Shown: positions 713-31,365 of the stretch, piece after piece
Layout: every line of letters begins with the position of its first letter
Position numbering within the stretch: the stretch's first letter is position 1
Source of the DNA: a virus
UHGV virus genome: UHGV-0150809
DNA length: 40,561 bases
Direction: 5' to 3' (one strand)
Position numbers and translations under genes: made by a program
Notes under the pieces: model-generated
What the model was told of the DNA's origin: nothing
Databases searched by the model: none
The model's input: the letters and a program-made list of their open reading frames with translations, nothing else

Positions 713-992
713 AACATCCTATGCCGCTATAGTCGCCACGGCGAAGGCCGTTACCTTTTGTGATACATTGGTCCCTGCGAACCGCGATCCTTGCACGCTC
801 AACATCACCAGAAGCAACATCCATACACTGAAGCCAAAGGTGGGCGGCAATGCGGAACTGCCCTTTTTTCTCTCTTTCAATCGCGCGTTTTTCGATCTCT
901 ATCGCCGCAGGAGTAACGGCAACAACCTTTGAAGGGCTGCGCATTGAAACCTTGTTCATGTGATATTTTTCAAGTCGGCTTAACTTTCTCAC
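693..992 (-). CDS. Hypothetical small early protein
   Basis: 99-codon ORF co-oriented with the early-left operon; stop overlaps the methyltransferase start region; reported start is GTG; no recognisable motif. Confidence 0.4.
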   Translation of the reverse strand: MRKLSRLEKYHMNKVSMRSPSKVVAVTPAAIEIEKRAIEREKKGQFRIAAHLWLQCMDVASGDVERARIAVRRDQCITKGNGLRRGDYSGIGCCGVVYD

Positions 993-1101
993 TTAATCCA
1001 ACCCTCTCTGAAAATTAATGCCAGCAGATAAAGCCATGCTGAAACAGAGGTCAGGAATAAGTACCATCCTGACCATTTGCTCCAGTGCCTTAGCAGCACA
1101 C

Positions 1102-1350
1102 TCATGCCGCGTTGCTCACAGGACGATATACACGTTGCTGAACAGGAGGTTTTTTACCCTGGAACTCTGCCGGGCTTGCTGCCTGACGTTCATCAAGCCA
1201 ACGCTCAACTTCGTCACGGTTCCATGCGCAGCGTTTGTCAGTGATATACCAGCGTTTAGGAAATTCACCTGCGCGCTCCATACGGTCGATAGTGCTCCAT
1301 GACAGTGGCACCACCGCCAGGAGTTCCTTCTTACCTAATGCACCTTTCAT
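1102..1350 (-). CDS. AlpA-family HTH regulator / excisionase-like protein
   Basis: 82 aa; segment LSWSTIDRMERAGEFPKRWYI matches the AlpA/Vis-type helix-turn-helix; GAGAGG RBS upstream of the ATG. Confidence 0.6.
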   Translation of the reverse strand: MKGALGKKELLAVVPLSWSTIDRMERAGEFPKRWYITDKRCAWNRDEVERWLDERQAASPAEFQGKKPPVQQRVYRPVSNAA

Positions 1351-1399
1351 AAATACCTCTCTTGGTTGCAGTGCGGCGCGTGTGGCGCCGCGGTGGTGG

Positions 1400-2422
1400 T
1401 TACTCGAATTCTGGACGCATATCGTTAAGCGTCATCATGAATTTTTGGTGATATTCATCACCGAGCTTGTCAGCCATGGTGTTAATTTCATTTTCAGCGC
1501 GCTTGAACATCGTTTTTGCATCTTCAGCAGATGGATCCAGGCTATTAAGTATCGCGATGATATATTCTCGAGCTTCTTCTCGTTCTGAATCTGAAATTGG
1601 CGATAGGTGTTGACGCTCATCGTCAACTACGGAATATTCACCAGTGATAACAGCTGCGTTATCTTGGCTAAGTCCAGCTTCAGCGCGCTCATCCATAACA
1701 ACAGCCTTCTGCATTTCAATAGAAACAGGAAGATATTTGAACAGTCGGCGAATTACTGTTTTTTTAGCCATCTCATCGAAGTGATCAACCCATGGGCCAC
1801 TGCTACCGGCTTTGCTCAGTGCACGAACTTTCTCAACGTCTGCCCGGCTCATAACTTCAAATTGGACACCGCCATCTTTCAGTCGGGCAACGGCGTAAAC
1901 GTGCGTTAGTTCTCCGCGGTCACCTGTTTCGCAAGGTAAATGCTCGAGCGTTTCTTCCAGGCCGTATGAGTAGCTGAATTTGTCGTTTGTATGTACGGTA
2001 CGAGCCGAGATGCTCAGGATCTGCCCTGAGCGGCGGGCAAGGTCAATCATTCCGCGATAGCCGATAATCAGCTGTGCTTCTGTAGATACGGTTTCCCATC
2101 TTCCATTTACTTTCTGGCGTTTGTCGAACGGTATCAGGTAAGCGTGTCCAAGAGCTCCGCCTGGTTCAAGACCCAATTGGGCACATTGCATAATTGCCCC
2201 CAGGAAGCTGGCTTGGTCGCATGATGCAAGTTTTGGAACCTTTCGGATCTCTGTGGTTGCTATGCGCGCCAGACGGTCTGCTGTCATGTGCTTTGGAAGT
2301 GCCAAAGCCATCTGAGCTTTAATTTTTGGGTCTGCCAGAAGTCCGGCCAGAGTTGTTGGTTTCTCATTATGATGTGCAACTTGGTTACCGGTAGCCGCTG
2401 CCTTAAGTGCATTGATAGACAT
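1400..2422 (-). CDS. recT: RecT-family single-strand annealing recombinase
   Basis: 340-aa ORF with the RecT-like core (GYRGMIDLARRSG, acidic C-terminal tail); AAGGAG RBS; immediately downstream of a YqaJ-type exonuclease, the canonical pairing. Confidence 0.8.
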   Translation of the reverse strand: MSINALKAAATGNQVAHHNEKPTTLAGLLADPKIKAQMALALPKHMTADRLARIATTEIRKVPKLASCDQASFLGAIMQCAQLGLEPGGALGHAYLIPFDKRQKVNGRWETVSTEAQLIIGYRGMIDLARRSGQILSISARTVHTNDKFSYSYGLEETLEHLPCETGDRGELTHVYAVARLKDGGVQFEVMSRADVEKVRALSKAGSSGPWVDHFDEMAKKTVIRRLFKYLPVSIEMQKAVVMDERAEAGLSQDNAAVITGEYSVVDDERQHLSPISDSEREEAREYIIAILNSLDPSAEDAKTMFKRAENEINTMADKLGDEYHQKFMMTLNDMRPEFE

Positions 2423-2431
2423 TTTTTCTCC

Positions 2432-3331
2432 TTACTTCATTCTGAAGACGCGTTGTGTCGTTGTTGTTTTGAATTTTTCGAATAACTCAGGGTGTACTGA
2501 CTGGAATAGCTTCTGGTCGAATCTGTTGCTGATCTGAGATTTCCATGTGCAGAGCGGCTTTCCGTCCAGGGTCAGGACTGAATGCTCTTGCATGTACATC
2601 TTCAGCTTCTCTTCTGATATAGCTATTTCTTCTTCCAGTGATTTTCTGCGTGACTTCATGTCTCGTAGATCGTTGAATAGTGCGAGTGCCTTTCCGTCAG
2701 CCTCGATACTTGTCCCGGCATCTTTCTCAAACATCAGCGATACATCGCTTACGCTGGTAGCTTCCGGCGGGTTAAGATTTTTCACTCGGTCCCAGAAAGC
2801 GATTTCTTTTTCTAAGATCGCCTGGATAGTTTCTTCATCACGCTCAACCCGATAGATTCGGAAGTCGTCGCCACCGATAAGCACACCGAAAACGCATACC
2901 TGTTTGTTTGTAACCATCAACCCATGCATGGCCTGGGCCGTGTAATGCACAGGAATTGCATCTGTCTGGATTTCTCCCCATTCTTTGGCTTTGAACGGGC
3001 TAACTGTTTTGATCTCAATGTTCTCTCCTGACGCTGCTTCTGCATCGATCTCAGCTGCAATAAAATCGTAATCACGGTGGATATAGCGGTTTCCGCGATG
3101 AACGATTTCCATCCCTGTTTCCTCAGAAAGCAGGTCTATTACGTATGGCTCCATACGCTGGCCACGCGTGAAAACTTTCTGCTTGCTTGGGTCTACTGGT
3201 TTGACACGTGGCTGGACCTTATCCAGATAAACCTCAAGCGGGGTGCGCCATGGGCTAATTCCAAGAATCCCTGCAACATCGCTTCCTCCGATGTATTTTC
3301 TTCTATCCATGATTCCAGCGTTCCGCATCAT
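2432..3331 (-). CDS. YqaJ/lambda-Exo-like phage recombination exonuclease
   Basis: 299 aa; N-terminal IGGSDVAGILGISPWRTPLEVY resembles the YqaJ viral recombinase nuclease domain; start ATGATG overlaps the stop of the upstream ORF (translational coupling). Confidence 0.75.
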   Translation of the reverse strand: MMRNAGIMDRRKYIGGSDVAGILGISPWRTPLEVYLDKVQPRVKPVDPSKQKVFTRGQRMEPYVIDLLSEETGMEIVHRGNRYIHRDYDFIAAEIDAEAASGENIEIKTVSPFKAKEWGEIQTDAIPVHYTAQAMHGLMVTNKQVCVFGVLIGGDDFRIYRVERDEETIQAILEKEIAFWDRVKNLNPPEATSVSDVSLMFEKDAGTSIEADGKALALFNDLRDMKSRRKSLEEEIAISEEKLKMYMQEHSVLTLDGKPLCTWKSQISNRFDQKLFQSVHPELFEKFKTTTTQRVFRMK

Positions 3332-3627
3332 GCCGCGTCCCTCTGCCCATCAATCCGATCCGCCAGATCCCAGCGGGCGATAATTGCCATTGCCTCGCGC
3401 CGGTAGGCATCCATTAGTTCTTCGAACTCAGGGCTGTCTTTAGCGGCCTCCAGTACTTCCTGGCGAACGCCTTTGCCTGTTACAACGTCGAAAGTTGAGG
3501 CCAGTTGATGAAGCCGGATACTCTCAATCAGTTCAACTTGTCGGTCATATAGCTGTTCTGACAGGCAGTAGTCCTTGTCGAATGCCAGCATGATTTTTTG
3601 AAGATTTTTCTGCTGATTAACGTTCAT
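3328..3627 (-). CDS. Hypothetical early-left protein
   Basis: ORF track 3328..3642; preferred start is the ATG at 3627 (MNVNQQ) with GGGAGGG RBS; no family assignment. Confidence 0.45.
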   Translation of the reverse strand: MNVNQQKNLQKIMLAFDKDYCLSEQLYDRQVELIESIRLHQLASTFDVVTGKGVRQEVLEAAKDSPEFEELMDAYRREAMAIIARWDLADRIDGQRDAA

Positions 3628-3629
3628 TA

Positions 3630-3781
3630 TCAGCCCTCCCATATCTCGTTATCGTTGGCCACATCGCGAGCTTCTTTGCTGACGAAAGCCCACTTAATGC
3701 CTTCCTGTAAGGTGCGGAACTTCCAGCTCATGAATCCGCATGCAGTAACGCAGTACCAACCGTTGATGATTTTCCACTGCA
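3630..3781 (-). CDS. Small 49-aa ORF, first gene after the leftward early promoter (not in ORF track)
   Basis: Hand-translated: ATG at 3781 preceded by GAGGTAAC RBS; MQWKIINGWYCVTACGFMSWKFRTLQEGIKWAFVSKEARDVANDNEIWEG; TGA stop overlaps the next gene's RBS. Confidence 0.3.
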
Positions 3782-3862
3782 TAATTTGTTACCTCGGTCT
3801 GTTACCGTTGAGGTAATGATTATGCGTATTTGGTTTGATGTCAATAGATATGAGTTAAAAAA

Positions 3863-3877
3863 ATTACCCATAAGGTA
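3863..3877. promoter_or_regulatory. Operator-like palindrome TTACCCATAAGGTAA at the leftward early promoter (OL-like)
   Basis: Perfect TTACC-N5-GGTAA inverted repeat between the repressor gene end and the first leftward early ORF. Confidence 0.45.
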
Positions 3878-3888
3878 ATCTTGATGGC

Positions 3889-3914
3889 AATAAAAAAGCC
3901 GCCATGAGGCGGCT
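3889..3914 (-). terminator. Rho-independent terminator downstream of the repressor gene
   Basis: On the minus strand a GCCGCC-tcat-GGCGGC hairpin followed by a T-run; approximate coordinates. Confidence 0.45.
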
Positions 3915-3935
3915 TACTTGCTGAAAACTATAGTT

Positions 3936-4520
3936 TTATTGTTTATTTTTTTCGTTCTGGTTGATGACAAATTCAATGTAACTTTCGATCTTTGCTTTCT
4001 CGGTTTCGGGTAACAATGCGTAGCGCGAGCGGTCATAGTTGATGGTCGCAGGGTCGTGCGGGTGAATCAGTAATTCATAGCCGTGACGCCCGAATGCGGA
4101 TGCAACATTCTCCAGGGTGGAAATGGAAACGCTGACTTCATTGTTTAACAGGCGGCTGATTGTCACCTGGGCGACGCCGGATGCGCGGTGAAGTTTTCCT
4201 TGTGTTGAAAGGTCGCGGCTTTCGCTCATCCAGCGTTCCAGGTTGTGAGCCGCCAGCTGACCAATGTCGCTTGGTCCGACAGGCTGAAAACCCTCCTGAG
4301 AAAGCGAGCGATCGATATCAAGCCAGTTACGTGGTTTATTGGCGGCAGCTTCAATTTTTCGCGCAACCTGGTCGCCGATAACCTTCTTGCCAAGAGCCCA
4401 GCGGTTTACCAGATTTGCCTGAGTTCCAAGTTTTTCTGCCATCCGCGTCTGAACACCATTGAATTCACGGTCGATCAAGTCGTTGAGATTTTGCCTGCGG
4501 ACGTCCTGGATACTTTTCAT
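3936..4520 (-). CDS. Phage repressor (CI-like) with two tandem HTH domains and no S24/LexA-like autopeptidase domain
   Basis: 194 aa; N-terminal HTH (GVQTRMAEKLGTQANLVNRWALGKK) and second HTH (ASGVAQVTISRLLNNE); no Ala-Gly/Ser-Lys peptidase motifs; divergent from the cro-like gene with an operator cluster between. Confidence 0.7.
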   Translation of the reverse strand: MKSIQDVRRQNLNDLIDREFNGVQTRMAEKLGTQANLVNRWALGKKVIGDQVARKIEAAANKPRNWLDIDRSLSQEGFQPVGPSDIGQLAAHNLERWMSESRDLSTQGKLHRASGVAQVTISRLLNNEVSVSISTLENVASAFGRHGYELLIHPHDPATINYDRSRYALLPETEKAKIESYIEFVINQNEKNKQ

Positions 4521-4674: not shown

Positions 4675-4905
4675 ATGAGCGATAACGGACATTTCGATTT
4701 CAAAAAGCACTGGCTTGCACTTACTCCGGATGAGCGTGAAGCCTTCGCACAGGAAGCCGGAACGACGAGTCACTATATCCAGACTCACTTAACAGGTAAG
4801 CGCAAAATGCCAGGTAAAGTATTGATGAATGGGCTTTTTAAAGCCTGTAAAACAAGACAATGGCTGCGCTCAAAAGCAGAACTGGCATACTTCTTCTACT
4901 CATGA
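4675..4905 (+). CDS. Cro-like / YdaS-like HTH regulator
   Basis: 76 aa, divergent from the repressor; HTH-like segment LTPDEREAFAQEAGTTSHYIQTHLTGKR. Confidence 0.6.
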   Translation: MSDNGHFDFKKHWLALTPDEREAFAQEAGTTSHYIQTHLTGKRKMPGKVLMNGLFKACKTRQWLRSKAELAYFFYS

Positions 4906-4927
4906 TATCCAGCTACAACCCTCTGTA

Positions 4928-4950
4928 GACCGCCACCCGGCGGTCTTTTC
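4928..4950 (+). terminator. Rho-independent terminator after cro (tR1-like)
   Basis: GACCGCC-accc-GGCGGTC hairpin followed by TTTTC. Confidence 0.55.
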
Positions 4951-5055
4951 ATATCTATTCGTACCTCAAAGGTAATAAAAAACCAAATCTGGTTGATCTT
5001 TTTTTTGTGTCAGCACAAAATAACCGTAATCCCAATACTAATAACAGGGCTTACC

Positions 5056-5256
5056 ATGGAAATCATTACACGTATTGATGCCGCAAAGCGCGGACTTAAA
5101 CGCTATTACACCGGAAAACAATGTAAGCACGGACATGACAGTGAACGCTGGGTTTACAACGGACACTGTGTTGAGTGCACCATGGAATCAAACCGTCGCA
5201 TCAGGGCAGAGATTAAGCAGATCATGATTAATTCCTCCCCACAACATTCAAGCTGA
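5056..5256 (+). CDS. Small zinc-binding protein in the cII position
   Basis: ORF track 4993..5256; preferred start MEIITR at 5056; CKHGH...HCVEC spacing suggests a zinc ribbon; function unknown. Confidence 0.4.
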   Translation: MEIITRIDAAKRGLKRYYTGKQCKHGHDSERWVYNGHCVECTMESNRRIRAEIKQIMINSSPQHSS

Positions 5257-5271
5257 TAGCGGAGATTAATC

Positions 5272-6087
5272 ATGAGCAGACATGCAACAGATTGGGCCTG
5301 GGAGACAGATCCAGGTAGCTCGTCATTAAAGCTCATACTGCTCTCGATGGCTGACAGAGCCGATGAATATAACCTCTGCTACCCCAGCATAGAACGCCTC
5401 GTTAAAGACACTTGCCTGAATAAAAAAACCGTGCAGGCCGGGCTTATATCGCTCATGAAAATGGGTCTTATTTCAGATACCGGAGAGAGAAAGGGGGCGA
5501 CGAAAAGAGTACGGGTTTTCTCTCTTAATATAACCAAAAACGGGAACATTAAAGGCGACCGGGAGGGGGGTAATGAACCCGAAAACGGTAATGAACCCGA
5601 AAACGGGAATATACCCAAAAACGGGATGTTGAATGATCCCAAAAACGGGATGTTGAATGATCCCAAAAACGGGATCCAGAACCAGTCATATAACCAGTCA
5701 TTTAACCAAGAGAGGGAGAGCAGGACAAAAAACGGGGATTCTGTGCATCATGACCCCGGCGCAAACAACGCCGTGATGAATAACTTTGTTCCTCCTGGTG
5801 GGCCAGGGCAATTAGGCAAATTTGTCATGCATGAACAATGGCAACCATCAGATGACTTTCTTCGGAAAAGCTCATTGCAGGGGATCTACCTGGACAGTCT
5901 GCCAACGGCACAGGAACTTGCAGAGTTCAGAATTTACTGGATGGCTGAGGGTAAGGCATACCATCAGGCACAGTGGGAGCAGAAGCTGGCAAGGCGGCTG
6001 CAGATTAGCAGACAGAAGCAATCAACATTATCTGATAACAACGTTCCGCACTGGAACAGCCCTGAAGCATGGGAGGATTTCTTGTGA
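5272..6087 (+). CDS. Replication initiator, lambda O-like, with ori iterons embedded in the coding sequence
   Basis: GGAG RBS; N-terminal HTH-like region (SIERLVKDTCLNKKTVQAGL); internal peptide repeats GNEPENGNEPENG / MLNDPKNGMLNDPKNG encoded by DNA iterons; immediately followed by a lambda P homolog. Confidence 0.65.
   Translation: MSRHATDWAWETDPGSSSLKLILLSMADRADEYNLCYPSIERLVKDTCLNKKTVQAGLISLMKMGLISDTGERKGATKRVRVFSLNITKNGNIKGDREGGNEPENGNEPENGNIPKNGMLNDPKNGMLNDPKNGIQNQSYNQSFNQERESRTKNGDSVHHDPGANNAVMNNFVPPGGPGQLGKFVMHEQWQPSDDFLRKSSLQGIYLDSLPTAQELAEFRIYWMAEGKAYHQAQWEQKLARRLQISRQKQSTLSDNNVPHWNSPEAWEDFL
5534..5680. repeat. Replication-origin iterons (about six direct repeats, core AAAACGG(G/T)A) inside the O-like gene
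   Basis: Direct repeats visible in sequence (aacccgaaaacggtaatg x2, atcccaaaaacgggatgttgaatg x2, plus variants), followed by a short direct repeat accagtcat(a/t)taacca; matches the lambda ori-in-O arrangement. Confidence 0.6.
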
Positions 6088-6869
6088 ACAACGTTTTTAC
6101 CGCGATACAAAACCGTGACGGAGAAGCCCTTTCTCGCATGTCAGGTTATGAGCATCAGTACACCAACAATGACAACGTGGTGAACATGTCAGCAGAGAGG
6201 CTTGTTGATGCCCTTTTCAAACAGCTGAAACAACTGTTTCCGGCGGCAGTGGTAACCAACCTGAAGACGCCAGAGCAGGAAGTTGCTGCAAAACAGCAGT
6301 GGATTGCTGCGTTTGCCGAAGGGGGGATCCGAACCCGTGAACAGGTTTCTGCTGGTATGCGCCACGCCCGCGCCAGTGAATCTCCGTTCTGGCCGTCGCC
6401 AGGGCAATTCATCAAGTGGTGTAAAGACAGCAAGATGGTTCTTGGCGTCACCATTGACGATGTGATGGCGGAGTTTCACCGGTACAGCAAGGAAAAAAGT
6501 TTATATCCTGGTGGTCCCGAAAGATTCCCGTGGCGACATCCGGTTATGTACTGGGTCGTATGTGATACCCGCCGTGCAATGTATCAGCGCCAGCTTAGCG
6601 AGATTGAGGTTGAGAAACACGCGCGCAGGCTGCTCGATGATTGGGCGAAAAAGGTGGCTTCCGGACAGCAGATACCCGATCCGGTGATCAGCATACAGGC
6701 AAAGCCAGAACCCATGAGTACGCCTCCGGACACAGGGAGAGACGTTTACCATCCACCAGGGCGAAGTTTCGGGTGCATGCCTAACGCCGCCACCCTTGGG
6801 GGAATAACACCGGCGCAGTGGCTGATGGAGGAATACAGGCGGGGAAAGGCGTCAGGATTTATCAAGTAA
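6084..6869 (+). CDS. Replication protein P-like (helicase loader)
   Basis: Strong similarity by eye to lambda P (QQWIAAFAEGGIRTREQVSAGMRHARASESPFWPSPGQFIKWCK vs lambda RQWVLAFRENGITTMEQVNAGMRVARRQNRPFLPSPGQFVAWCR). Preferred start is GTG 6084 after GGAGGA, overlapping the O stop; the ATG at 6069 is the alternative. Confidence 0.8.
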   Translation: MNNVFTAIQNRDGEALSRMSGYEHQYTNNDNVVNMSAERLVDALFKQLKQLFPAAVVTNLKTPEQEVAAKQQWIAAFAEGGIRTREQVSAGMRHARASESPFWPSPGQFIKWCKDSKMVLGVTIDDVMAEFHRYSKEKSLYPGGPERFPWRHPVMYWVVCDTRRAMYQRQLSEIEVEKHARRLLDDWAKKVASGQQIPDPVISIQAKPEPMSTPPDTGRDVYHPPGRSFGCMPNAATLGGITPAQWLMEEYRRGKASGFIK

Positions 6870-6906
6870 TACCAGCGCGATAGCGCATTTTTTTACGTCT
6901 CGATAA

Positions 6907-6983
6907 TTACCTTAGAGGTAATAAAATATTCTAAAATCTATTGATTTCGTGTCTTATGTGGTTTTTAATTACCTAAGGGGTAA
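6907..6983. promoter_or_regulatory. Two operator-like palindromes (6907-6921 TTACCTTAGAGGTAA; 6969-6983 TTACCTAAGGGGTAA) upstream of the gene at 6987
   Basis: Perfect TTACC-N5-GGTAA copies in the P-to-next-gene gap; the second overlaps the RBS. Confidence 0.4.
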
Positions 6984-6986
6984 ATC

Positions 6987-7331
6987 ATGAGAAAACAGAT
7001 ACAGGCTCTTGGTCGACTCAAAACAGGCCAGATGAACAAAACAGAATCTGCGTATTGCCAGCACCTTGAGCTGCGTAAACGTGCAGGAGAAATCGTCTGG
7101 TATCGATTTGAGGGTATCAAGCTGCGGTTAGCTGACAACACGTTCTATACGCCCGATTTTGCTGTGATGCTCGCCACCGGCGAGATGGAACTGCACGAAG
7201 TGAAAGGTTTCTGGAGCGACGACGCCAGGGTGAAAACCAAAGTCGCCGCAGATCAGTATCCGTTCCGAATCATCGGGGTAACGGTTAAACCAAAGAAAGC
7301 AGGTGGTGGCTGGAACATCGAAAAGTTCTGA
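6987..7331 (+). CDS. DUF1064-like small phage protein (possible PD-(D/E)xK-fold nuclease)
   Basis: 114 aa; FYTPDF...ELHEVKG pattern recalled from DUF1064-type phage proteins; assignment from memory only. Confidence 0.45.
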   Translation: MRKQIQALGRLKTGQMNKTESAYCQHLELRKRAGEIVWYRFEGIKLRLADNTFYTPDFAVMLATGEMELHEVKGFWSDDARVKTKVAADQYPFRIIGVTVKPKKAGGGWNIEKF

Positions 7332-7392
7332 ATCGACGATCTTTTTAGTTATCAATGTAATCAATAAGTTATGTGGATAAGCGAGGGTAAAG

Positions 7393-8004
7393 ATGGAAAG
7401 TATGGCTGAAGGTATGATCAAAGATTTAGTGGCATCAGGGCATGCGTTAGCTGACGACATGACAGGCGCACCATCCGTGCTTGTTCGCTGTTTGGCAGCG
7501 CAACTGGAAGTTCAGTTGGTGCGTGCTAATGAGCTGGCCGAAGACCACCAGAGAGCGATTGAGTCAATTAAGCAGGCTGATGCAGCTGTTAAGTTGGCAC
7601 ACGAGAAGTTTTCGACGCTGGCAGCGGAGAATGCGGGGCTAAAGGCGATATGTGATGACCGTCGCAGATTCATCATGAATGGGGTGCAGATGGGTTATAT
7701 CAAGGTGCCAGCAGCGGAAACAGATCCAGACCTTGAGACAATTCGCATTGCTATATCACCACAAAAGCCCATTCCAGCCACCGATGCTTTCCTGTCTGAA
7801 GTGCGGGCGCAGGGGGTGGATGCTGCTATAGAAGCTGCAAAAAATCTGGTGGCCCAAGAATATGAGTATAAGGATTTCAAAGCGGCGCAGAGTGATTGCT
7901 GTATGCACCCTGGTTCAGACCTGGTAGGGAAGGTTGAAATGACTGAGTGGTTAGTTGACTTTGCTGCCCAGCTTCGCAAAGGAGGCACCAGTGAGCGAGA
8001 TTGA
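7393..8004 (+). CDS. Hypothetical protein
   Basis: 203-aa ORF with GAGGGTAAAG RBS; no recognised motif. Confidence 0.45.
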   Translation: MESMAEGMIKDLVASGHALADDMTGAPSVLVRCLAAQLEVQLVRANELAEDHQRAIESIKQADAAVKLAHEKFSTLAAENAGLKAICDDRRRFIMNGVQMGYIKVPAAETDPDLETIRIAISPQKPIPATDAFLSEVRAQGVDAAIEAAKNLVAQEYEYKDFKAAQSDCCMHPGSDLVGKVEMTEWLVDFAAQLRKGGTSERD

Positions 8005-8683
8005 CTATCAGGCGTTGCGTAAGGCAGCACAAAACTATCAATCGACTCTGGCGTGGTATCAGGAAAAGCCAGACAGTCCAAACGCTGAACAGGATTGTGA
8101 TGCAGCTTTAGCGGCGTTTAAGCGAGAAATCCGTCATCGGGAAGTGGACATTATCGCCGGGCTGTTGGATGAGCTGGACGAAAAACAGCAATACATCAAA
8201 CTCCGCGACCAGGAGAACGAGGATATTGCGCTAACGGTAGGGAAGCTGCGTGTTGAGCTGGAAGCAACAGAGAACAACCTTATTGATAGTGAATGCCATG
8301 TTGCTGAACTGGAAGAAGCGCTACGCGATAAGCAGGTGTTACTTGAAGCCTCAGAAAAGCGCAACGCAAAATTACAAAGCGAGAATGCATACATCCGCAA
8401 CCGGTTCAAAGAACTGGACCTGTTAATCGGGAAAAACATTCTGGTCATGCAGGCTGCCATTATCGAATGGCAGGCAACTGGCGACGCTAAGAGCGGACTG
8501 GCATGGATTTATAACACACTGTTTGGCCCAGGCGAATTGCCGGACGAATCTGAGCAAGATGCTCAGGCCTACTTTAATCGCAAATATGCACCGATTGACG
8601 AAAAGCTTATGGCGCTTCACAAGTGGTTTTGGGAACAAAGTGAAGCCGAGCGCGCCGCTGGCATCAAGGAGGAGTCTGAGTGA
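7991..8683 (+). CDS. Hypothetical coiled-coil protein
   Basis: ORF track 7955..8683; preferred start GTG 7991 after GGAGG, overlapping the upstream stop; central heptad-like Glu/Leu-rich segment. Confidence 0.45.
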   Translation: MSEIDYQALRKAAQNYQSTLAWYQEKPDSPNAEQDCDAALAAFKREIRHREVDIIAGLLDELDEKQQYIKLRDQENEDIALTVGKLRVELEATENNLIDSECHVAELEEALRDKQVLLEASEKRNAKLQSENAYIRNRFKELDLLIGKNILVMQAAIIEWQATGDAKSGLAWIYNTLFGPGELPDESEQDAQAYFNRKYAPIDEKLMALHKWFWEQSEAERAAGIKEESE

Positions 8684-9174
8684 TGGTCATTTCACCTATA
8701 ACGCTGAAAGCGGCGCAGGAATTTATCGCACAGCACCACCGACACAATAAACCACCAGTGGGGCATAAATTCAGCATTGGTCTGAGAAATAATGCCGGAG
8801 AATTGATAGGTGTGGCGACAGCTGGTCGACCTGTTGCACGACATTTCGACGATGGATTAACGCTTGAAGTAAATCGCACATGTACCACAGGAGAACGCAA
8901 CGCTAACAGCGCGCTTTATGGTGCTATCTGGCGGGCAGCAAAAGCTATGGGTTATCAACGTTGTATTACGTACACCCAGGCAGATGAATCAGGAGCATCT
9001 CTTCGCGCAGCTGGTTTTGTTCGTGTGAAAGAGCTTCCTCCAAGAAAAAGCTGGGCGGAATCAAGCGTCGCCCTGCGGAGTAAACGCGATCCGGTCGGAA
9101 ACGGTGGTATTCCTCGTGTGCTCTGGGAAATCAGGAGAATGAGTACCACTGGCATTCGCATCAAAGGAGAGTGA
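8683..9174 (+). CDS. Hypothetical protein, possible acyltransferase (GNAT)-like fold
   Basis: 163 aa from the ATG at 8683 (AGGAGG RBS); pattern of alternating strand/helix segments suggests a GNAT-like fold; weak, memory-based. Confidence 0.35.
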   Translation: MVISPITLKAAQEFIAQHHRHNKPPVGHKFSIGLRNNAGELIGVATAGRPVARHFDDGLTLEVNRTCTTGERNANSALYGAIWRAAKAMGYQRCITYTQADESGASLRAAGFVRVKELPPRKSWAESSVALRSKRDPVGNGGIPRVLWEIRRMSTTGIRIKGE

Positions 9175-9175
9175 T

Positions 9176-9463
9176 ATGGCAACTTTGCAGGAATTAATCG
9201 ACCTGACGCCAGAACAGGAAAAAGCGTGGAATCGCCTTGTGAAGGCTGTAAAGGATTTCAGGGCAGCCGGAGGAAAGTTTTATAGCGTCCTGGACACGCT
9301 GAGCGCATACAACGGCGAGCACGTTGCCAGCATTGATAACGATAAGGGCTACCACACTGCAAGCGTCTATATGCCTAGCATTGATGCGCCAGGGCTAACC
9401 AGTTGGGCTGATGATTGGCACGGCATCACGCTGAAAGATGGCGTTGAAGTGGATGAGGACTAA
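9176..9463 (+). CDS. Hypothetical protein
   Basis: 95-aa ORF with AAAGGAGAG RBS. Confidence 0.45.
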   Translation: MATLQELIDLTPEQEKAWNRLVKAVKDFRAAGGKFYSVLDTLSAYNGEHVASIDNDKGYHTASVYMPSIDAPGLTSWADDWHGITLKDGVEVDED

Positions 9464-9466
9464 CAC

Positions 9467-10153
9467 ATGACAACTTTCACCGACAAAGAACTGATTAAAG
9501 AAATCAGAGAGCGAATCGGCAGCCTGGACGTGCGAGACAATATTGAGCGCCTGGCTTATGAAATCGCACTGGCATCGCTGGCAGCAGTATCGGATGAACG
9601 AGCAGCCTATGAATTATTTATGGAGAAGCGTTTCGGGGAATCTGTAGATCGCCGTAGGGCAAAAAATGGCGATAGAGAATACATGGCATGGGATATGGCG
9701 CTTGGCTGGATTATCTGGTGTCACCGCGCCGCCATGCTTCAGGGTAGCCAACCTGTAAGCCAAACTTACAACTTGCCAGAATTAATCGAAGGCATGGAAG
9801 TTTCCATTGATGTAAGCACTTGTGATGCTGATTTAGGTAATCGCTATTTCGGCACCGTCACCGAGGCGTTAGAACTTGATACAGCCAAGAATGGTTACAT
9901 CCTCCTGGTTCAGGACGCAGAGCCAAACTTCGATGTAAATGGCAACTATCCGGTAATTCCGGATGGTTGGATAAGCTGTAGTGAGCGAATGCCCCCTCAA
10001 GATGATTGGATTTTAATTTATTCAAAGCACGGCGAGTATATGGCAGGACAGGTGCAAGGGGAATACGTGGAGTTGAGCGACGGCACTTTATCGTGGTTAG
10101 GGAACGTCTTGTTCTGGATGACGTTGCCAGAACCTCCGAAGGGGGCGAAATGA
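9467..10153 (+). CDS. Phage protein with C-terminal DUF551-like domain
   Basis: 228 aa; C-terminal WISCSERMPPQDDWILIY resembles the DUF551 signature common in enterobacterial prophage nin-region proteins. Confidence 0.5.
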   Translation: MTTFTDKELIKEIRERIGSLDVRDNIERLAYEIALASLAAVSDERAAYELFMEKRFGESVDRRRAKNGDREYMAWDMALGWIIWCHRAAMLQGSQPVSQTYNLPELIEGMEVSIDVSTCDADLGNRYFGTVTEALELDTAKNGYILLVQDAEPNFDVNGNYPVIPDGWISCSERMPPQDDWILIYSKHGEYMAGQVQGEYVELSDGTLSWLGNVLFWMTLPEPPKGAK

Positions 10154-10410
10154 TGGATGTAAAAGAGAAGGTTTTGCAGGTGATGCGTTCCCGGGCTGCC
10201 CTGCAAGATAAAGCTCTCGGCGGGGAATATCCATTCACGATAGCAACCTGGAATCTGCGGTTGGCAATGGAGAAGGAATTTCCTGATGAAGAATGGCGTT
10301 CGGCAGATTTGCGCAAAATTCTTATGGAGCTGGCTAAAGACGGAGCAGTATCCAAAGATACCTATGCCAGCCGGATTGGTCAGGCGGTATGGAGACTGGA
10401 GGTGCGGTAA
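10150..10410 (+). CDS. Hypothetical protein
   Basis: ATG overlapping the upstream stop (coupled); MMDVKEKVLQVMRS...; ORF track lists a longer out-of-context start at 10006. Confidence 0.4.
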   Translation: MMDVKEKVLQVMRSRAALQDKALGGEYPFTIATWNLRLAMEKEFPDEEWRSADLRKILMELAKDGAVSKDTYASRIGQAVWRLEVR

Positions 10411-10691
10411 TGGCTAACCTGCAACTTGCCGTCAAAGGTGAATACTTCGATGCCATGATTCGTGGAGAGAAAACGGAAGAGTATCGCCTGTGTAATGACT
10501 ACTGGAATAAGCGAATTATGTTCCGGGAGTATGACCGCCTGATTATCACAAAGGGATATCCGAAGCGCGACGATTCCAGCCGAAGAATTGACGTCCCGTA
10601 TGACGGATATGAAATCAAGACAATCACACATCCGCACTTCGGTGATAAACCGGTAAAGGTGTTCGCGATAAAGGTAAATATTGATGGCTAA
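10410..10691 (+). CDS. ASCH/PUA-like small protein
   Basis: Preferred start MANLQ at 10410 after GGAGG; KGEYFDAMIRGEKTEEYR resembles ASCH-domain N-termini; memory-based. Confidence 0.4.
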   Translation: MANLQLAVKGEYFDAMIRGEKTEEYRLCNDYWNKRIMFREYDRLIITKGYPKRDDSSRRIDVPYDGYEIKTITHPHFGDKPVKVFAIKVNIDG

Positions 10692-11022
10692 ATCAGCAGC
10701 AGAGCGCAAAGCCGCTCAGAGAGCCAGACAAGCTGCATCTGGTGTGCGTAAGCTGGAGATTGTGCTTGATGCTCAGGAAATTGAAATGCTGGAGCGTAAC
10801 TGTGCCACGCGTCGCCCCGGGCGTGCGCCTTACGAATTTGGTGAGTATATAGCGTTACTGATCCGCCAGGATGATGCACGCGTGCGCGGGCGTATAAAAT
10901 CGATCAGCAGAAAACGTTGCGGTAAGTGCGGCGAGAGAGTTCCAGTTAATTCATGCCCGTGTAATGGTGACTCGCAATGCTGGGTGACTAAAGGCTGGCA
11001 TGAAACGAAATTAATAGTGTGA
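10684..11022 (+). CDS. Ribbon-helix-helix plus C-terminal zinc-ribbon protein at the early/late junction (candidate late-gene regulator)
   Basis: 112 aa; RKLEIVLDAQEIEMLERN fits an RHH strand-helix; C-terminal CGKCGERVPVNSCPCNGDSQC cysteine cluster; last gene before the late promoter/terminator region. Confidence 0.45.
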   Translation: MAKSAAERKAAQRARQAASGVRKLEIVLDAQEIEMLERNCATRRPGRAPYEFGEYIALLIRQDDARVRGRIKSISRKRCGKCGERVPVNSCPCNGDSQCWVTKGWHETKLIV

Positions 11023-11030
11023 CATGTCAC
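11019..11030. repeat. 12-bp perfect palindrome GTGACATGTCAC, copy 1, overlapping the stop codon of the RHH-Zn gene
   Basis: Exact sequence read; identical copies at 13284-13295 and 30568-30579. Confidence 0.6.
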
Positions 11031-11071
11031 GAGTAGATTATGCATGATGAATTTGATGGATTTTGAATACT

Positions 11072-11097
11072 GCCGCCAACTATGGCGGCTTTATTTT
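11072..11097 (+). terminator. Rho-independent terminator immediately upstream of the terminase genes (tR'-like)
   Basis: GCCGCCA-acta-TGGCGGC hairpin followed by TTTATTTT, about 45 bp before the terminase small-subunit start. Confidence 0.5.
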
Positions 11098-11140
11098 GCA
11101 TGGTACTATTACCACAACGGTAACAATTACCACGGTGGTT

Positions 11141-11737
11141 ATGATGCCTGCTGAACCTAAAACCTATAAACGCAAATCAACGCAATTTAAGCCGCTCACA
11201 GCAATGCAGGAGGCTTATTGCCAGTCATACATCAAAACGCCTGAAAACCAGACTCAGGCTGCGATTAACGCAGGATTCTCCCCAAATACAGCGGCAGTTA
11301 AAGCCAGTGTCATGATGCGCGATGAACGCATTCAGAAACGGATTGCCGAGTTGATGGAGGAGCGCAACAAACGAATGCGTGTCAGTGCTGATTACGTTCT
11401 CATGCGCCTGGTGGAGATCGACCAGATGGACGTGATCGACATCCTCAACGACGATGGGAGCCTTAAACCAATCCGTGAGTGGCCGAAAATCTGGCGCACT
11501 ACGCTTAGTGGCTTTGATCTGTCATCGACCATCATGAACATGAACGAGGATTCAATAGAGACAATCCTCAAAAAAATTAAATGGCCTGACAAGGTGAAGA
11601 ACCTTGAGCTGATTGGTAAGCATGTTGATGTCAACGCATTCAAAGAACGTCTGGATGTTAATGTGAATGTGACAATTGCTGATCGCATAGCAGCAGCCAG
11701 GAAGCGACTCAAAGAACGTCAGGATGGTAATCAGTGA
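11141..11737 (+). CDS. Terminase small subunit
   Basis: Position immediately upstream of the large subunit with overlapping stop/start; ORF track 11063..11737 would begin inside the terminator hairpin, so the MMPAEPKTY start at 11141 is preferred. Confidence 0.55.
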   Translation: MMPAEPKTYKRKSTQFKPLTAMQEAYCQSYIKTPENQTQAAINAGFSPNTAAVKASVMMRDERIQKRIAELMEERNKRMRVSADYVLMRLVEIDQMDVIDILNDDGSLKPIREWPKIWRTTLSGFDLSSTIMNMNEDSIETILKKIKWPDKVKNLELIGKHVDVNAFKERLDVNVNVTIADRIAAARKRLKERQDGNQ

Positions 11738-13209
11738 CAGATACAGCGTTATCTCCTGAAGAGCAGTTAATCGAGGATATTGCAGGGTTCACTCACGATC
11801 CGCTTGGCTATGCCCTCTATGCGTTCCCGTGGGGGGAAGATGGGACTGAACTGGCACATGCCACCGGTCCACGTCAGTGGCAGGCTGATGCGTTCCGAGA
11901 GATACGTGATCACCTGCAGAATCCAGAGACGCGCTATCAGCCGCTTATGCTGGCACGCGCTTCGGGTCACGGTATTGGTAAATCCGCATTCATCTCAATG
12001 CTGATCAACTGGGGCATGTCCACTTGCGAGGATTGTAAGGTTGTGGTGACCGCCAACACCGACAACCAGCTACGAACGAAGACCTGGCCGGAAATTATCA
12101 AGTGGTCGAACCTTGCTATCACGAAAGACTGGTTTACCTGTACCGCTACCGCGATGTACAGCAATGATCCTGGACACGACAAGCGGTGGCGAGCTGACGC
12201 AATACCCTGGTCTGAGCACAACACTGAGGCATTCGCCGGACTACACAACGAGCGCAAACGCATCATCGTGGTATTCGATGAAGCGTCGAACATTGCGGAT
12301 CTGGTGTGGGAAGTTGCCGAGGGTGCGCTAACGGACGAAGACACTGAGATTATCTGGGTGGCGTTCGGAAACCCGACGCGTAATACCGGACGTTTCCGCG
12401 AATGTTTCCGCAAATATAAACACCGCTGGAAAACTGCGCAGATTGACAGCCGGACGGTGGAAGGCACCAACAAACAGCAGTTGCAGAAATGGGTTGATGA
12501 CTACGGGGAAGACAGCGACTTCGTTAAAATCCGTGTGCGCGGCATATTCCCGGATGCATCGGAATTGCAGTTTATCCCTACCGGACTTACTGACGAGGCA
12601 ATGAAACGGGTGGTCACCGCTGCGCAGGTTGCACATGCTCCGGTGATAATCGGCGTTGACCCGGCATACTCAGGCGTTGATGACGCTGTGATATACCTGC
12701 GGCAGGGGCTGCACAGTAAGGTGCTGTGGACTGGCAACAAGACCACTGACGATCTGATTATGGCAAAGCGTATCGCTGACTTTGAAGACCAGTATCAGGC
12801 TGACGCGGTGTTCATCGACTTCGGTTACGGAACCGGTTTGAAGTCAATCGGTGACGGATGGGGTCGTACATGGCAACTTGTTCCGTTCGGTGGCGCGTCT
12901 ACTGACCCGCAGATGCTCAACAAGCGTGGGGAGATGTTCAATTCATGCAAGACATGGCTGAGGCTGGGCGGCATGCTGGATGACCAGGAAACAGCGGACG
13001 ACCTGTCGGCGGCAGAGTACAAAGTTCGCGTGGACGGTAAAATCATTATCGAACAGAAGGAAGATATCAAGGAGCGGCTTGGGCGTTCTCCTGGTAAAGG
13101 CGATGCGCTACTGCTGACGTTTGCGTTCCCTGTGTCGAAGCGTCTGCGAATTCCCGGTCAGCAGAACCAGCAAGGCAAGGCCATCACAGATTACGATCCC
13201 TATGCTTAA
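11734..13209 (+). CDS. Terminase large subunit
   Basis: 491 aa; Walker-A-like ARASGHGIGKSAF, acidic ATPase motif IIVVFDEAS and C-terminal nuclease-like region; reported start is GTG overlapping the upstream stop. Confidence 0.8.
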   Translation: MTDTALSPEEQLIEDIAGFTHDPLGYALYAFPWGEDGTELAHATGPRQWQADAFREIRDHLQNPETRYQPLMLARASGHGIGKSAFISMLINWGMSTCEDCKVVVTANTDNQLRTKTWPEIIKWSNLAITKDWFTCTATAMYSNDPGHDKRWRADAIPWSEHNTEAFAGLHNERKRIIVVFDEASNIADLVWEVAEGALTDEDTEIIWVAFGNPTRNTGRFRECFRKYKHRWKTAQIDSRTVEGTNKQQLQKWVDDYGEDSDFVKIRVRGIFPDASELQFIPTGLTDEAMKRVVTAAQVAHAPVIIGVDPAYSGVDDAVIYLRQGLHSKVLWTGNKTTDDLIMAKRIADFEDQYQADAVFIDFGYGTGLKSIGDGWGRTWQLVPFGGASTDPQMLNKRGEMFNSCKTWLRLGGMLDDQETADDLSAAEYKVRVDGKIIIEQKEDIKERLGRSPGKGDALLLTFAFPVSKRLRIPGQQNQQGKAITDYDPYA

Positions 13210-13259: not shown

Positions 13260-13295
13260 AGCCAGCTCATCGGCTGGCTGTTTGTGACATGTCAC
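13260..13295. repeat. Hairpin (AGCCAGC-tcatcg-GCTGGCT) plus GTGACATGTCAC palindrome copy 2 (13284-13295), between convergent genes
   Basis: Read directly from sequence. Confidence 0.55.
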
Positions 13296-13299
13296 TGCG

Positions 13300-13722
13300 T
13301 TAGAAGGTTATTTTATCGAATGCGGCGTTGATTGCCTTGGCGTCCTGCTCAGCACCAACCACATCAAGTAAAGATCTTTTACTAAGCACTTCAGCCAGGC
13401 ATTGTAACTTCATGTTGTATAAGTTTTCGCGCATGTAATCATCATCACTTTTTTCTTTGGCGTATACAGAGCGAGAAATATCAAACACATCGCCTTTTTC
13501 CATTTCAGAACGTTGTGCTGTTATCCAGTCATGGAACGTAACGCTAGTACCATGGTCTTCGCTAAGAGTTAACCCGGTCAGTCCCTCACTCTGAATTACT
13601 TCGTAATGCATTTCATTACCAGCAAAAACGCCATAAAAAACGCAGTCTTCAGCCTGAACGATACGAGAATATTTTAATGGCCATTCATTTAGATACTTAG
13701 CCAACATATCAATTGTCTTCAT
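13300..13722 (-). CDS. Hypothetical moron protein (140 aa), inverted inside the late operon
   Basis: Opposite strand to the flanking late genes; AAGGTGAGA RBS; visibly AT-richer than neighbours; no recognisable motif. Confidence 0.5.
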   Translation of the reverse strand: MKTIDMLAKYLNEWPLKYSRIVQAEDCVFYGVFAGNEMHYEVIQSEGLTGLTLSEDHGTSVTFHDWITAQRSEMEKGDVFDISRSVYAKEKSDDDYMRENLYNMKLQCLAEVLSKRSLLDVVGAEQDAKAINAAFDKITF

Positions 13723-13920: not shown

Positions 13921-13997
13921 TGGCGTGGCATGCAGGATTCGAACCTGCGACCAACCGCTTAGAAGGCGGTTGCTCTGTCCAACTGAGCTAATGCCAC
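13921..13997 (-). tRNA. tRNA-Arg (anticodon UCU), argU-like
   Basis: Reverse complement folds as a 77-nt cloverleaf: acceptor GTGGCAT/ATGCCAC, D-arm GCTC-AGTTGGACA-GAGC, anticodon loop CTTCTAA, T-arm GCAGG-TTCGAAT-CCTGC, discriminator G and encoded CCA. Confidence 0.8.
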
Positions 13998-19526: not shown

Positions 19527-20131
19527 TGGCCTCTGTAGTAGAGATCTGTAATCGTGCGCTGTCCAATATTGGCAACAGCCGCAGTATTAACAGCCTGACG
19601 GAAGCCAGCAAGGAAGCGGGGGAATGTTCGCTGCACTTTGAGGCCTGCCGTGATGCTGTTCTTTCTGATTTTGACTGGAACTTTGCTACCAAACGCGTGG
19701 CGCTTGCAGATACGAGCAATCCACCGCCTGACTGGGAATATGCGTACCAGTACCCGTCCGATTGTCTGCGCATTACTGAAATTATGCTTCCTGGTGTACG
19801 CAATCCAACAGCAGCAATGCGCGTTCAGTACGAAGTTGGTGCAGACACCAACGGAACAGGAAAGTTGATCTACACAGACCAGCCGCAGGCATGGCTCAAG
19901 TATGTCTCTCGCGTTTCAGATGTGAACATGTTTGATGCCATTTTTATGGAGGCGTTGGCCTGGCGTCTTGCGGCAGCTATTAACATGGCGCTCACTGGGA
20001 ATGCAGACCTCGGTACGTTTGCCCTCAATATGTACAATCGCGTGATTCTTAGTGCTGGCTCGCATAGCCAGAATGAATCACAGGAACCACAGCCACCGGT
20101 TGACGAGTTTACCATTGCGAGGTTGTCCTGA
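19526..20131 (+). CDS. Tail tubular protein A (T7 gp11-like)
   Basis: About 200 aa; N-terminal CNRALSNIGNSRSINSL pattern resembles T7 gp11 (NDILASIGEPPVSTL); gene order as in T7; GGAGGT RBS. Confidence 0.55.
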   Translation: MASVVEICNRALSNIGNSRSINSLTEASKEAGECSLHFEACRDAVLSDFDWNFATKRVALADTSNPPPDWEYAYQYPSDCLRITEIMLPGVRNPTAAMRVQYEVGADTNGTGKLIYTDQPQAWLKYVSRVSDVNMFDAIFMEALAWRLAAAINMALTGNADLGTFALNMYNRVILSAGSHSQNESQEPQPPVDEFTIARLS

Positions 20132-30567: not shown

Positions 30568-30604
30568 GTGACATGTCACAGGCCGCTTTCGCGGCCTTGT
30601 TTTT
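30568..30604 (+). terminator. GTGACATGTCAC palindrome copy 3 (30568-30579) followed by a rho-independent terminator (GGCCGC-tttc-GCGGCC plus T-run) ending the structural operon
   Basis: Read directly from sequence. Confidence 0.6.
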
Positions 30605-31211: not shown

Positions 31212-31365
31212 AATTTTCCTTATTGTTACGAGAATCAAAGAAAGCGCGGGATACGCGACTTGCGTGATCTTTTGTCATAGTAACTTTTACGCACTCTACG
31301 CTTCCATTGAAAGAACGTCTTGCGGCAGCTTGCGCTCTACGCATCTGCAATTTTTCGTTTCGCAT
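31186..31365 (-). CDS. Small basic 59-aa ORF upstream of and overlapping the 181-aa moron gene (not in ORF track)
   Basis: Hand-translated MRNEKLQMRRAQAAARRSFNGSVECVKVTMTKDHASRVSRAFFDSRNNKENYEFVCVAE; GAGGTAA RBS 6 nt upstream of the ATG; overlaps the downstream start by 26 nt. Confidence 0.3.
   Translation of the reverse strand: MRNEKLQMRRAQAAARRSFNGSVECVKVTMTKDHASRVSRAFFDSRNNKENYEFVCVAE

Follow-up and report, generated by a model that had tools for sequence, protein, structure and literature searches.

The subject of this analysis is the junction between the early and the packaging genes (10684-11144) of UHGV virus genome UHGV-0150809, a stretch of 40,561 nucleotides (the window) from a temperate, epsilon15-like (Uetakevirus) phage of E. 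coli. We put at about one half the probability that this junction is a boundary between operons that are controlled separately on its two sides, at which the terminase small-subunit gene, terS, has a promoter of its own and the 112-amino-acid (112-aa) protein encoded by the last early gene is a palindrome-binding boundary factor, not a substitute for the antiterminator Q. In the model that we propose, (i) rightward early transcription would stop at an intrinsic terminator (11072-11097); (ii) transcription of terS-terL would start at an extended -10 element, TGGTACTAT (11101-11109), that has no -35; (iii) the prophage repressor, a homologue of SPC32H Rep, is presumed to bind a 17-bp motif, ATTACC-N5-GGTAAY, at the terS promoter, and what mainly switches the late genes would probably be the release of many promoters from one repressor, not Q-type read-through; and (iv) the 112-aa protein would be a sequence-specific binder of double-stranded DNA, built of a ribbon-helix-helix (RHH) dimer, an N-terminal basic helix and a Cys4 zinc module, with GTGAC-N2-GTCAC as its cognate site. 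One copy of this palindrome overlaps the protein's own stop codon and, in epsilon15-like phages, the other two lie immediately before terminators that end transcription units, and the most likely job of the protein would be to mark or reinforce such boundaries as a roadblock, an insulator or a modulator of termination. The sequence features, their conservation and the co-occurrence of protein and site, on which this model is built, were observed directly.

The elements of the junction are as follows (coordinates, strand, description).

10684..11022, plus strand: gene of the 112-aa protein, last of the rightward early operon (PHROG 536)
11019..11030, no strand: palindrome copy 1, GTGACATGTCAC, overlapping the TGA at 11020-11022; presumed site of the 112-aa protein
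11019..11048, plus strand: weak sigma-70-like hexamers, GTGACA-18-CATGAT, overlapping the palindrome
11072..11097, plus strand: predicted intrinsic terminator closing the early-right operon, GCCGCCA-ACTA-TGGCGGC then TTTATTTT
11101..11109, plus strand: predicted extended -10 of the terS-terL operon (TG at 11101-11102, one base, TACTAT at 11104-11109)
11108..11124, no strand: operator-like site ATTACCACAACGGTAAC (ATTACC-N5-GGTAAT), presumed site of the prophage repressor
11126..11142, no strand: second, weaker operator-like repeat ATTACCACGGTGGTTAT, overlapping the terS Shine-Dalgarno sequence and first ATG
11144..11737, plus strand: terS, first gene of the packaging operon (PF03592, E = 1e-29; phrog_51; annotations of relatives)
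11734-13209, plus strand: terL, directly after terS

Layout of the junction and its terminator

Over positions 10300-11800 the window is 98% identical to PAS61 and to the O157 typing phages 9 and 10, and close kin are found in TL-2011b, phiV10 and ZX5. After the early operon come, on the plus strand, the genes for terminase, structural proteins, tailspike and lysis, a series that is broken up by small minus-strand islands. The start codon of terS is the ATG at 11144, with a further in-frame ATG at 11141, so placed that the gene begins 44-47 nt past the T-tract of the terminator, and a Shine-Dalgarno sequence, GGTGG (11134-11138), lies five nt before the start. An earlier note on this DNA, made from its letters without database searches, had proposed an early/late junction here, with a strong intrinsic terminator about 45 bp before terS; the gene layout around 10684-11144, the measured spacing, and the stability, conservation and annotation of the hairpin described below all bear this out. 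An Rfam scan of the window gave no match within 10684-11140.

The orthologous locus is the gp49-terS junction of epsilon15 (GenBank AY150271.2), which is also present in phiV10, TL-2011b and SPN1S. Epsilon15 shares the homologue of the 112-aa protein (gp49, 77% identical to it), a rho-independent terminator where the genome ends, an annotated "repressor" binding site at 12-27 and terS at 47, while its record is silent on the palindrome, on its three copies and on any function of gp49. The window differs only in detail, for example in the gap from palindrome to terminator, which is 41 nt against 23 nt in epsilon15. The junction is a terminator-bounded operon boundary, the elements of which are partly annotated already in epsilon15.

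The terminator hairpin (11072-11089) has a stem of 7 bp, six of them GC, a loop of ACTA and a tail that reaches 11097; its predicted free energy is -14.5 kcal/mol (z = -4.1 against shuffled sequences). It is kept in relatives from E. coli, Salmonella, Enterobacter and, in one case, Klebsiella, with an A-to-G change that converts an A-U to a G-U pair, and is absent from one other Klebsiella relative. A conserved GC-rich hairpin followed by a U-tract has the sequence hallmarks of an intrinsic terminator, and the epsilon15 record labels the orthologous hairpin as a rho-independent terminator.

The promoter-like -35/-10 hexamers that the earlier note had placed upstream of the terminator fared less well. 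The pair GTGACA-18-CATGAT matches the consensus at 9 of 12 positions, such pairs are found twice in 3 kb where shuffled sequences give 4.2 by chance, and the -10-like half, CATGAT, is lost in the Salmonella and Enterobacter relatives; the hexamers at 11019-11048 are probably not a promoter.

A promoter-like element and an operator before terS

Directly downstream of the terminator lies the predicted extended -10, from which transcription would start near 11116-11117. It reads TGnTAYTAT in nine diverse relatives and in 31 IMG/VR variants, with variation confined to n (G/T/A) and to the C/T of the hexamer, which are positions that a -10 tolerates, and it opens a block, TGnTAYTAT-TACC-N5-GGTAAY-...-SD-ATG (SD, Shine-Dalgarno sequence), that is conserved in the same set. 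In the Klebsiella relative that has no terminator, similarity to the window begins exactly at the extended -10. The last two bases of the element are the start of the 17-bp operator motif; the second repeat, at 11126-11142, is less conserved as an operator among relatives.

Allowing up to two mismatches, ATTACC-N5-GGTAAT occurs 13 times in the window against 1.15 expected, always between called genes. The sites flank the repressor gene and also precede terS, the portal operon, the ant region, the tailspike gene and the replication-distal early genes. In the epsilon15 record their orthologues, that of the terS site among them, are marked as binding the repressor. The regions and elements concerned are the following.

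~50-4520: leftward early genes and repressor
3844-3816, minus strand: early leftward promoter PL, TTGACA-17-AATCAT, the best consensus promoter in the window
3936-4520, minus strand: repressor gene, homologue of SPC32H Rep (PDB 5d50, E = 4e-42)
~4675-11022, plus strand: rightward early operon

With both the motif and a gene for its presumed repressor present, the sequence points to an operator regulon of the Rep type (SPC32H; epsilon15 gp38). The -10 of PL overlaps its operator in a register identical to that at terS (AATCAT|TACC versus TACTAT|TACC), and PL likewise sits after a terminator, that of the repressor gene. Since the same operator motif precedes every operon, late switching would probably proceed by relief of repression, and since a conserved extended -10 and an operator lie directly past the terminator, terS could be transcribed from its own promoter. 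On these sequence grounds, the packaging operon is probably transcribed from a repressor-controlled promoter of its own, and the terminator probably does no more than end the early operon. The earlier claim that the late genes "must" read through the terminator, as in the PR'-tR' arrangement of lambda, is not supported, given these two elements downstream of it.

Several points weigh against a promoter at this position: (i) the extended -10 lacks a -35 and was not detected by the consensus promoter scan; (ii) the operator and the 5' untranslated region could by themselves account for the conservation of the block; (iii) the operator could act as a roadblock on read-through transcripts and not as part of a promoter; (iv) the assignment of the motif to the repressor is based on the epsilon15 annotation and on where the motifs are placed; and (v) a literature search found no transcription start or termination data for any epsilon15-like phage, nor a worked-out account of late-gene timing in this group. 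Promoter activity and repressor binding at terS are thus stated here as readings of the sequence.

Some further observations concern the same type of element. TGGT followed by A/T-rich sequence is found upstream of the portal, tailspike, lysis and rusA-like genes, both in the window and in epsilon15. More closely defined, the element is CATATGTGGTT(W3), TGGT and then an A/T-rich hexamer, 30-70 nt before the rusA-like, portal-operon, tailspike and lysis genes, with copies as follows.

Window: 6955, 14378, 33726 and ~36740
L006: 2992 and 24755
L005: 5958

A by-eye search for a canonical -35/-10 before the portal and tailspike operons gave only this shared TGGT and A/T-rich element, which may stand for a shared class of promoters, possibly late ones, akin to TGGTACTAT at terS. 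At 3801/3863 and at 6906/6968, operator-like sites form pairs whose starts are exactly 62 bp apart, a distance that may suit cooperative or looping binding by a tetrameric repressor. In the rightward early region, a strong terminator followed immediately by an operator-like site (4927-4976) lies after the cro-like gene (4675-4905).

The 112-aa protein

The open reading frame (ORF) runs from the ATG at 10684, with a TTG at 10681, to the TGA at 11020-11022. Its product matches the PHROGs profile phrog_536 over its full length (E = 1.6e-54, residues 1-111 of 112) and so belongs to PHROG 536; it is the orthologue of epsilon15 gp49, which the epsilon15 record already likens to N15 gp46. The PHROG carries the label "transcriptional regulator", for which a literature search found no supporting experiment, and a search on N15 gp46 likewise returned nothing relevant.

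In an alignment of 56 diverse homologues the N-terminus is basic, the core has the order strand-helix-helix and the C-terminus carries a CxxC...C...C pattern, with C79 and C82 invariant and C99 nearly so. The AlphaFold (AF2) model built from this alignment (pLDDT 90.7) has helices at 5-19, 30-42, 52-75 and 100-107, with an extended segment between the first two and a zinc knuckle before the last, and its fold matches place the core, as modelled, in the ribbon-helix-helix (Arc/MetJ/CopG) superfamily. The domain order is therefore an N-terminal basic helix, the RHH, a long helix, a Cys4 zinc knuckle and a short C-terminal helix, and ORF, alignment and model together confirm the RHH N-terminus and the Cys-cluster C-terminus ending at 11022 that had been read from the letters.

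Database searches were less informative. The 112-aa protein alone found no match among PDB sequences and only sub-threshold ones in Pfam and NCBIfam (DUF4457 and a LexA-regulated protein); Foldseek searches of PDB and BFVD gave nothing informative beyond RHH folds and a fragment of the same protein; and a search of viral contigs with the single protein returned only near-identical epsilon15-like loci. Members of the family number in the hundreds and come from phages as well as from phage-plasmids of Klebsiella, Escherichia and Vibrio. The hosts are Enterobacterales, Vibrio and Aeromonas, and the family is abundant in ParA-carrying N15-like and Vibrio phage-plasmids.

The C-terminal half resembles the DksA/TraR C4 zinc-finger family (TraR, YbiI): it shares the CxxCG-x-x-P...G...C pattern and the same order of long helix, zinc knuckle and short helix, and its profile matches TraR/YbiI in PDB weakly (E 0.026-0.029). 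It does not belong to that family (PF01258), as the second CxxC is absent from the alignment and Pfam gave no match. Binding in the secondary channel of RNA polymerase in the manner of TraR was set aside: in the model, the helix that would have to enter the channel is part of the RHH core.

The palindrome and its link to the protein family

The sequence GTGACATGTCAC is a perfect palindrome of 12 bp, present in exactly three copies in the window, the first of which confirms the palindrome that had been proposed for the end of the 112-aa gene. The other two are as follows.

13284..13295, no strand: copy 2, between the convergent terL (ending at 13209) and the minus-strand ORF 13300-13722
30568..30579, no strand: copy 3, past the last gene of the structural operon (ending at 30410)

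Epsilon15 carries the palindrome at the same three places; the position of copy 2 is kept in epsilon15, SPN1S, Tyrion and PAS61, and that of copy 3 in epsilon15, where it lies beside an annotated terminator (19531-19556). Across nine diverse relatives the core, TGTGACATGTCACGA, is invariant and the flanks vary.

The palindrome travels with the protein well beyond this group. Of 12 phage genomes or contigs of unrelated types that encode a homologue, 11 contain GTGAC-N2-GTCAC, for which dinucleotide shuffles give an expectation of 0.005-0.035 per genome: N15 has three copies, one of them overlapping the TGA of gene 46; ZF40 has three, one of them 2 nt past the stop codon of the homologue; a Yersinia phage has one; Vibrio phage K233 has three; and Vibrio 10N.237 has two, one of which overlaps the stop codon. 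Five further contigs with distant homologues all contain it, and overlap with the stop codon recurs in four lineages (the window, N15, Vibrio 10N.237 and contig L103). The central dinucleotide is uniform within the window, ZF40, N15, 10N.237 and L101 and differs between lineages; K233, L100 and L103 each have two forms of it. As a test in the other direction, short viral stretches of a few kb each were seeded on TTGTGACATGTCAC, and 37 of 120 encode a homologue. From this co-occurrence we infer that GTGAC-N2-GTCAC is the cognate site of the 112-aa protein family, and the symmetric 5-2-5 arrangement, which suits a dimeric RHH protein, supports that assignment. The literature search turned up no paper that mentions these palindrome sequences in phages. 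A CRP/FNR site was also considered for TGTGA-N4-TCAC, and rejected on spacing.

All three copies in the window precede an intrinsic terminator in its working direction, the gap being 41 nt at copy 1, 4 nt at copy 2 (on the minus strand) and 0-1 nt at copy 3. At copy 2 the minus strand reads stop codon, 4 nt, palindrome, 4 nt, terminator (13279-13260) and then TTTGTTTTAT, and copy 3 abuts a terminator at 30580-30597 that is followed by TGTTTTT. In the seeded viral set, a terminator starts no more than 60 nt downstream of 33% of 138 distinct sites, compared with 1.35% of random positions, and 21 different hairpin sequences are found near palindromes, 13 of them at 1-5 nt. The palindrome recurs directly ahead of terminators, so the 112-aa protein may have a role related to termination. 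Since copies 2 and 3 lie between convergent transcription units, and read-through at copy 2 would be antisense to terL, a putative function as boundary or roadblock would fit better than antitermination.

Against a boundary function bound to terminators it should be said that (i) the enrichment was measured against random and not exclusively intergenic positions, and many of the seeded loci are related; (ii) the extra N15 and ZF40 sites are intragenic and away from terminators, so that a terminator-linked role cannot be general, and the terminator link may be a speciality of the epsilon15-like group; (iii) the Aeromonas phage 85AhydR10PP bears a homologue and has no GTGAC-N2-GTCAC site; and (iv) the proposed binding of the protein to the palindrome is deduced from their co-occurrence. 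The interaction of the two and its effect on transcription are accordingly put forward as predictions.

It is very improbable, in our view, that the palindrome is not the protein's site at all and instead serves a host factor, acts as an RNA element in which a 4-bp hairpin is stacked on the terminator hairpin, or hitch-hikes at a recombination boundary. As RNA, copies 2 and 3 would indeed form a small hairpin abutting the terminator helix, and mosaic junctions between relatives lie directly after TGTGACATGTCACGA. The RNA hairpin of the palindrome is, however, no more stable than those of shuffled sequences (-2.9 kcal/mol, z -0.18), for which reason an RNA role was rejected; the motif recurs at unlinked positions in the 11 of 12 unrelated genomes, most of which keep a single central dinucleotide that differs between lineages (two variants in K233, L100 and L103); and the symmetry of the site is that expected of an RHH dimer.

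Three side observations concern the palindrome itself. Different extra genes are inserted exactly after TGTGACATGTCACGA (L024 10336-10569, L008 2858-3187, L009 2857-3114), which therefore marks a mosaic junction; they are a 70-aa gene in about a quarter of the E. coli relatives and, in Klebsiella, a further small gene and a umuD-like gene preceded by an SOS box (TACTGT-N8-ACAGTA). Contig L101 has tandem 12-bp sites at 12475 and 12498, 23 bp apart, in a convergent intergenic region. N15 (L014 33237) and an N15-like contig (L104 5092) carry GTGACTGGTCAC at the same place inside repA, which suggests a role of the site in the control of replication genes in telomere phage-plasmids.

Read-through control by the 112-aa protein

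The earlier note had found no Q- or N-family antiterminator in the window and had set the RHH-zinc protein in the place of Q, proposing a comparison with the Q and Ogr/Delta families. Among the early-region proteins (Pfam) and the early and left-arm proteins (PHROGs), which were scanned without the late-region ORFs, there is no match to Q, N, Ogr/Delta or Mor, so that the first statement holds within that scope. The comparison produced no relationship: the 112-aa protein has no match at E <= 0.1 to the Q families (PF06323, PF03589, PF06530) and none to Ogr/Delta (PF04606) in Pfam, and for the 56 homologues neither a Q family nor Ogr/Delta is among the 25 most-matched of 27 Pfam families, while N15 gp40, used as a positive control, matches PF06323 at 1e-110. 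Moreover, homologues coexist with such regulators, namely with Q in N15 (gp40) and an N15-like contig, with a RefSeq-annotated Q-like protein (itself without a Pfam match) in ZF40, and, in a P2-like phage of Yersinia, with a genuine Ogr (PF04606, 2e-19). The protein is the last early gene product and combines RHH and zinc modules as described, but the role of Q cannot be ascribed to it on this evidence.

These results also bear on an earlier model, in which 11019-11048 is a promoter with the left half of the palindrome as its -35, a short transcript ends at 11097, and the 112-aa protein, bound at the palindrome beside its own gene in the way that Q lies next to qut, alters RNA polymerase to let transcription pass into terS; in a generalised form, the protein would suppress the terminators that follow each palindrome. 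The order of gene, site, terminator and late genes does mimic the Q-PR'-tR' region of lambda, the scans of early-region and left-arm proteins gave no other antiterminator family, palindrome and terminators are tightly coupled in the seeded viral set, and in epsilon15-like phages, Vibrio K233, 10N.237, L100 and L107 the gene comes last or nearly last among the early genes, ahead of those for lysis or packaging; the weak C-terminal profile match (E ~0.03) is to a zinc-finger family that binds RNA polymerase. We nevertheless regard this model as improbable, given that the hexamers are at chance level and unconserved, that there is no space for a promoter at copies 2 and 3 and read-through at copy 2 would run antisense to terL, that the helix required for entry into the secondary channel is modelled within the RHH core, that homologues coexist with Q or Ogr, and that a conserved promoter-like element lies downstream of the terminator. 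In addition, extra genes (morons) separate palindrome from terminator in many relatives: about 25 of 80 close ones have a 70-aa gene between the 112-aa gene and the terminator, and Klebsiella relatives have there the umuD-like gene controlled by an SOS box or another gene. Lambda-like read-through is the less likely reading.

Resemblance to MatP and matS

The half-sites of the palindrome, GTGAC and GTCAC, are identical to those of matS, the 13-bp site GTGACRNYGTCAC (PMC3603311), and its spacer is 2 bp against 3 in matS. The family motif keeps the 2-nt spacer (12 bp) in all lineages and so departs, as sequence, from the 13-bp recognition site of MatP; as a side observation, the sole 13-bp instance seen, GTGACACCGTCAC in Vibrio K233 (L097 19491), fits the matS consensus. 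On the protein level, comparison of the 112-aa protein with MatP gave a BLASTP E value of 13 and an hhalign probability of 0.9%, and no MatP domain (PF06303, PF17414) is among the 25 most-matched of the 27 Pfam families for the homologues. The 112-aa protein is too short for the N-terminal bundle of MatP, has neither its four-helix bundle nor its coiled coil, and carries a Cys4 zinc module instead. MatP has 23 sites in its macrodomain, compared with one to three per phage genome here. The relation to MatP is one of resemblance and not of membership.

MatP is found in the clade to which the hosts of the family belong (Enterobacterales, Vibrio and Aeromonas). It is against this background that an action of protein and palindromes on DNA architecture should be weighed, be it bridging or marking in the manner of MatP, interference with MatP or MukBEF of the host, or an accessory function in the initiation of packaging near terS. 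Beside the identical half-sites and the shared host range, the modelled order of basic helix, strand, helix and long helix parallels MatP residues ~70-140, the family is abundant in N15-like and Vibrio phage-plasmids with ParA, copies 1 and 3 bracket the whole block from terS to the last structural gene, and in two Vibrio phages the site lies 2-20 nt before the terS ribosome-binding site. The absence of a significant sequence relationship to MatP, the spacer of 2, the missing N-terminal bundle and C-terminal coiled coil, and site positions that differ between phage types make such an action doubtful in our judgment, and we favor the boundary factor described above.

A bolder proposal, unlikely as it stands, is that PHROG 536 constitutes a new class of DNA-tethered factors that either switch terminators at matS-like 12-bp palindromes or mimic MatP and act, on phage or phage-plasmid DNA, on the Ter/MukBEF/division machinery of the host. 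In the terminator-switching version, an RHH dimer would sit on palindromes 1-5 nt before terminators and at the end of its own gene and turn those terminators on or off when polymerase arrives; if true, this would be a site-specific, non-processive form of termination control distinct from Q, N and put.

What can be said of the family is that it is uncharacterised and travels with a 12-bp palindrome that resembles matS. The candidate DNA site and its coupling to terminators are, as far as we can determine, new for this orphan family, which thereby gains a concrete candidate site with matS half-sites, tied to terminators; at stake is whether phages carry a miniature MatP-like or termination-control system. 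For the epsilon15-like phages, which include phiV10 (used in E. coli O157 diagnostics) and the Salmonella models SPC32H and SPN1S, a lambda-style guess is replaced by a testable map of terminator-bounded operons in which each promoter has the same repressor-type motif.

Other features of the window

Features away from the junction are listed below.

693-992, minus strand: 99-aa ORF in the leftward operon, PerC/Pch activator family (PF06069, 30.1 bits, above the cut-off; phrog_868), another candidate regulator from a family known for activating virulence genes
5526-5678: five 24-nt and three 18-nt direct repeats within the O-like replication initiator gene (5272-6087), which look like origin iterons
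8680-9174, plus strand: Mom-like DNA modification protein, in the early operon
13921-13997 and 13300-13722, minus strand: tRNA-Arg(tct) and a 140-aa gene (phrog_4846), a minus-strand island between terL and the portal operon
30666-31238, minus strand: YafO-toxin-like protein (PF13957, just above the cut-off), after the structural operon
32249-32430 and 31514-32353, minus strand: C4 antisense RNA (RF01695, 79.5 bits) and isrK (RF01394), directly upstream of the Bro-N/Ant antirepressor gene, a control module of the P1/P7 immI type

Comparison with known systems

The likeness to the Q/qut-PR'/tR' region of lambda lies in the shared order of regulator gene, adjoining DNA site, short interval, strong intrinsic terminator and late genes, and in a regulator that has a zinc-binding module in both cases. 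The differences are that the 112-aa protein has no homology to Q, that the hexamers overlapping the palindrome are probably not a promoter, that further copies of the palindrome stand at terminators without promoters, and that a separate promoter-like element lies past the terminator.

A close parallel for the proposed control of terS is the regulon of SPC32H Rep, of which the window encodes a homologue: a regulon of dispersed operators in which one repressor motif (13 sites here) precedes every operon, the late ones included. The C1 operators of P1 and the stoperators of mycobacteriophage L5 are likewise regulons of dispersed operators under one repressor. The likeness to P1 extends to its c4 antisense RNA and ant module, a counterpart of which is present in the window; a late activator like Lpa of P1 was not found in the phage. 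Unlike the stoperators of L5, the operators of the window are symmetric and stand at promoters, not oriented inside transcribed regions.

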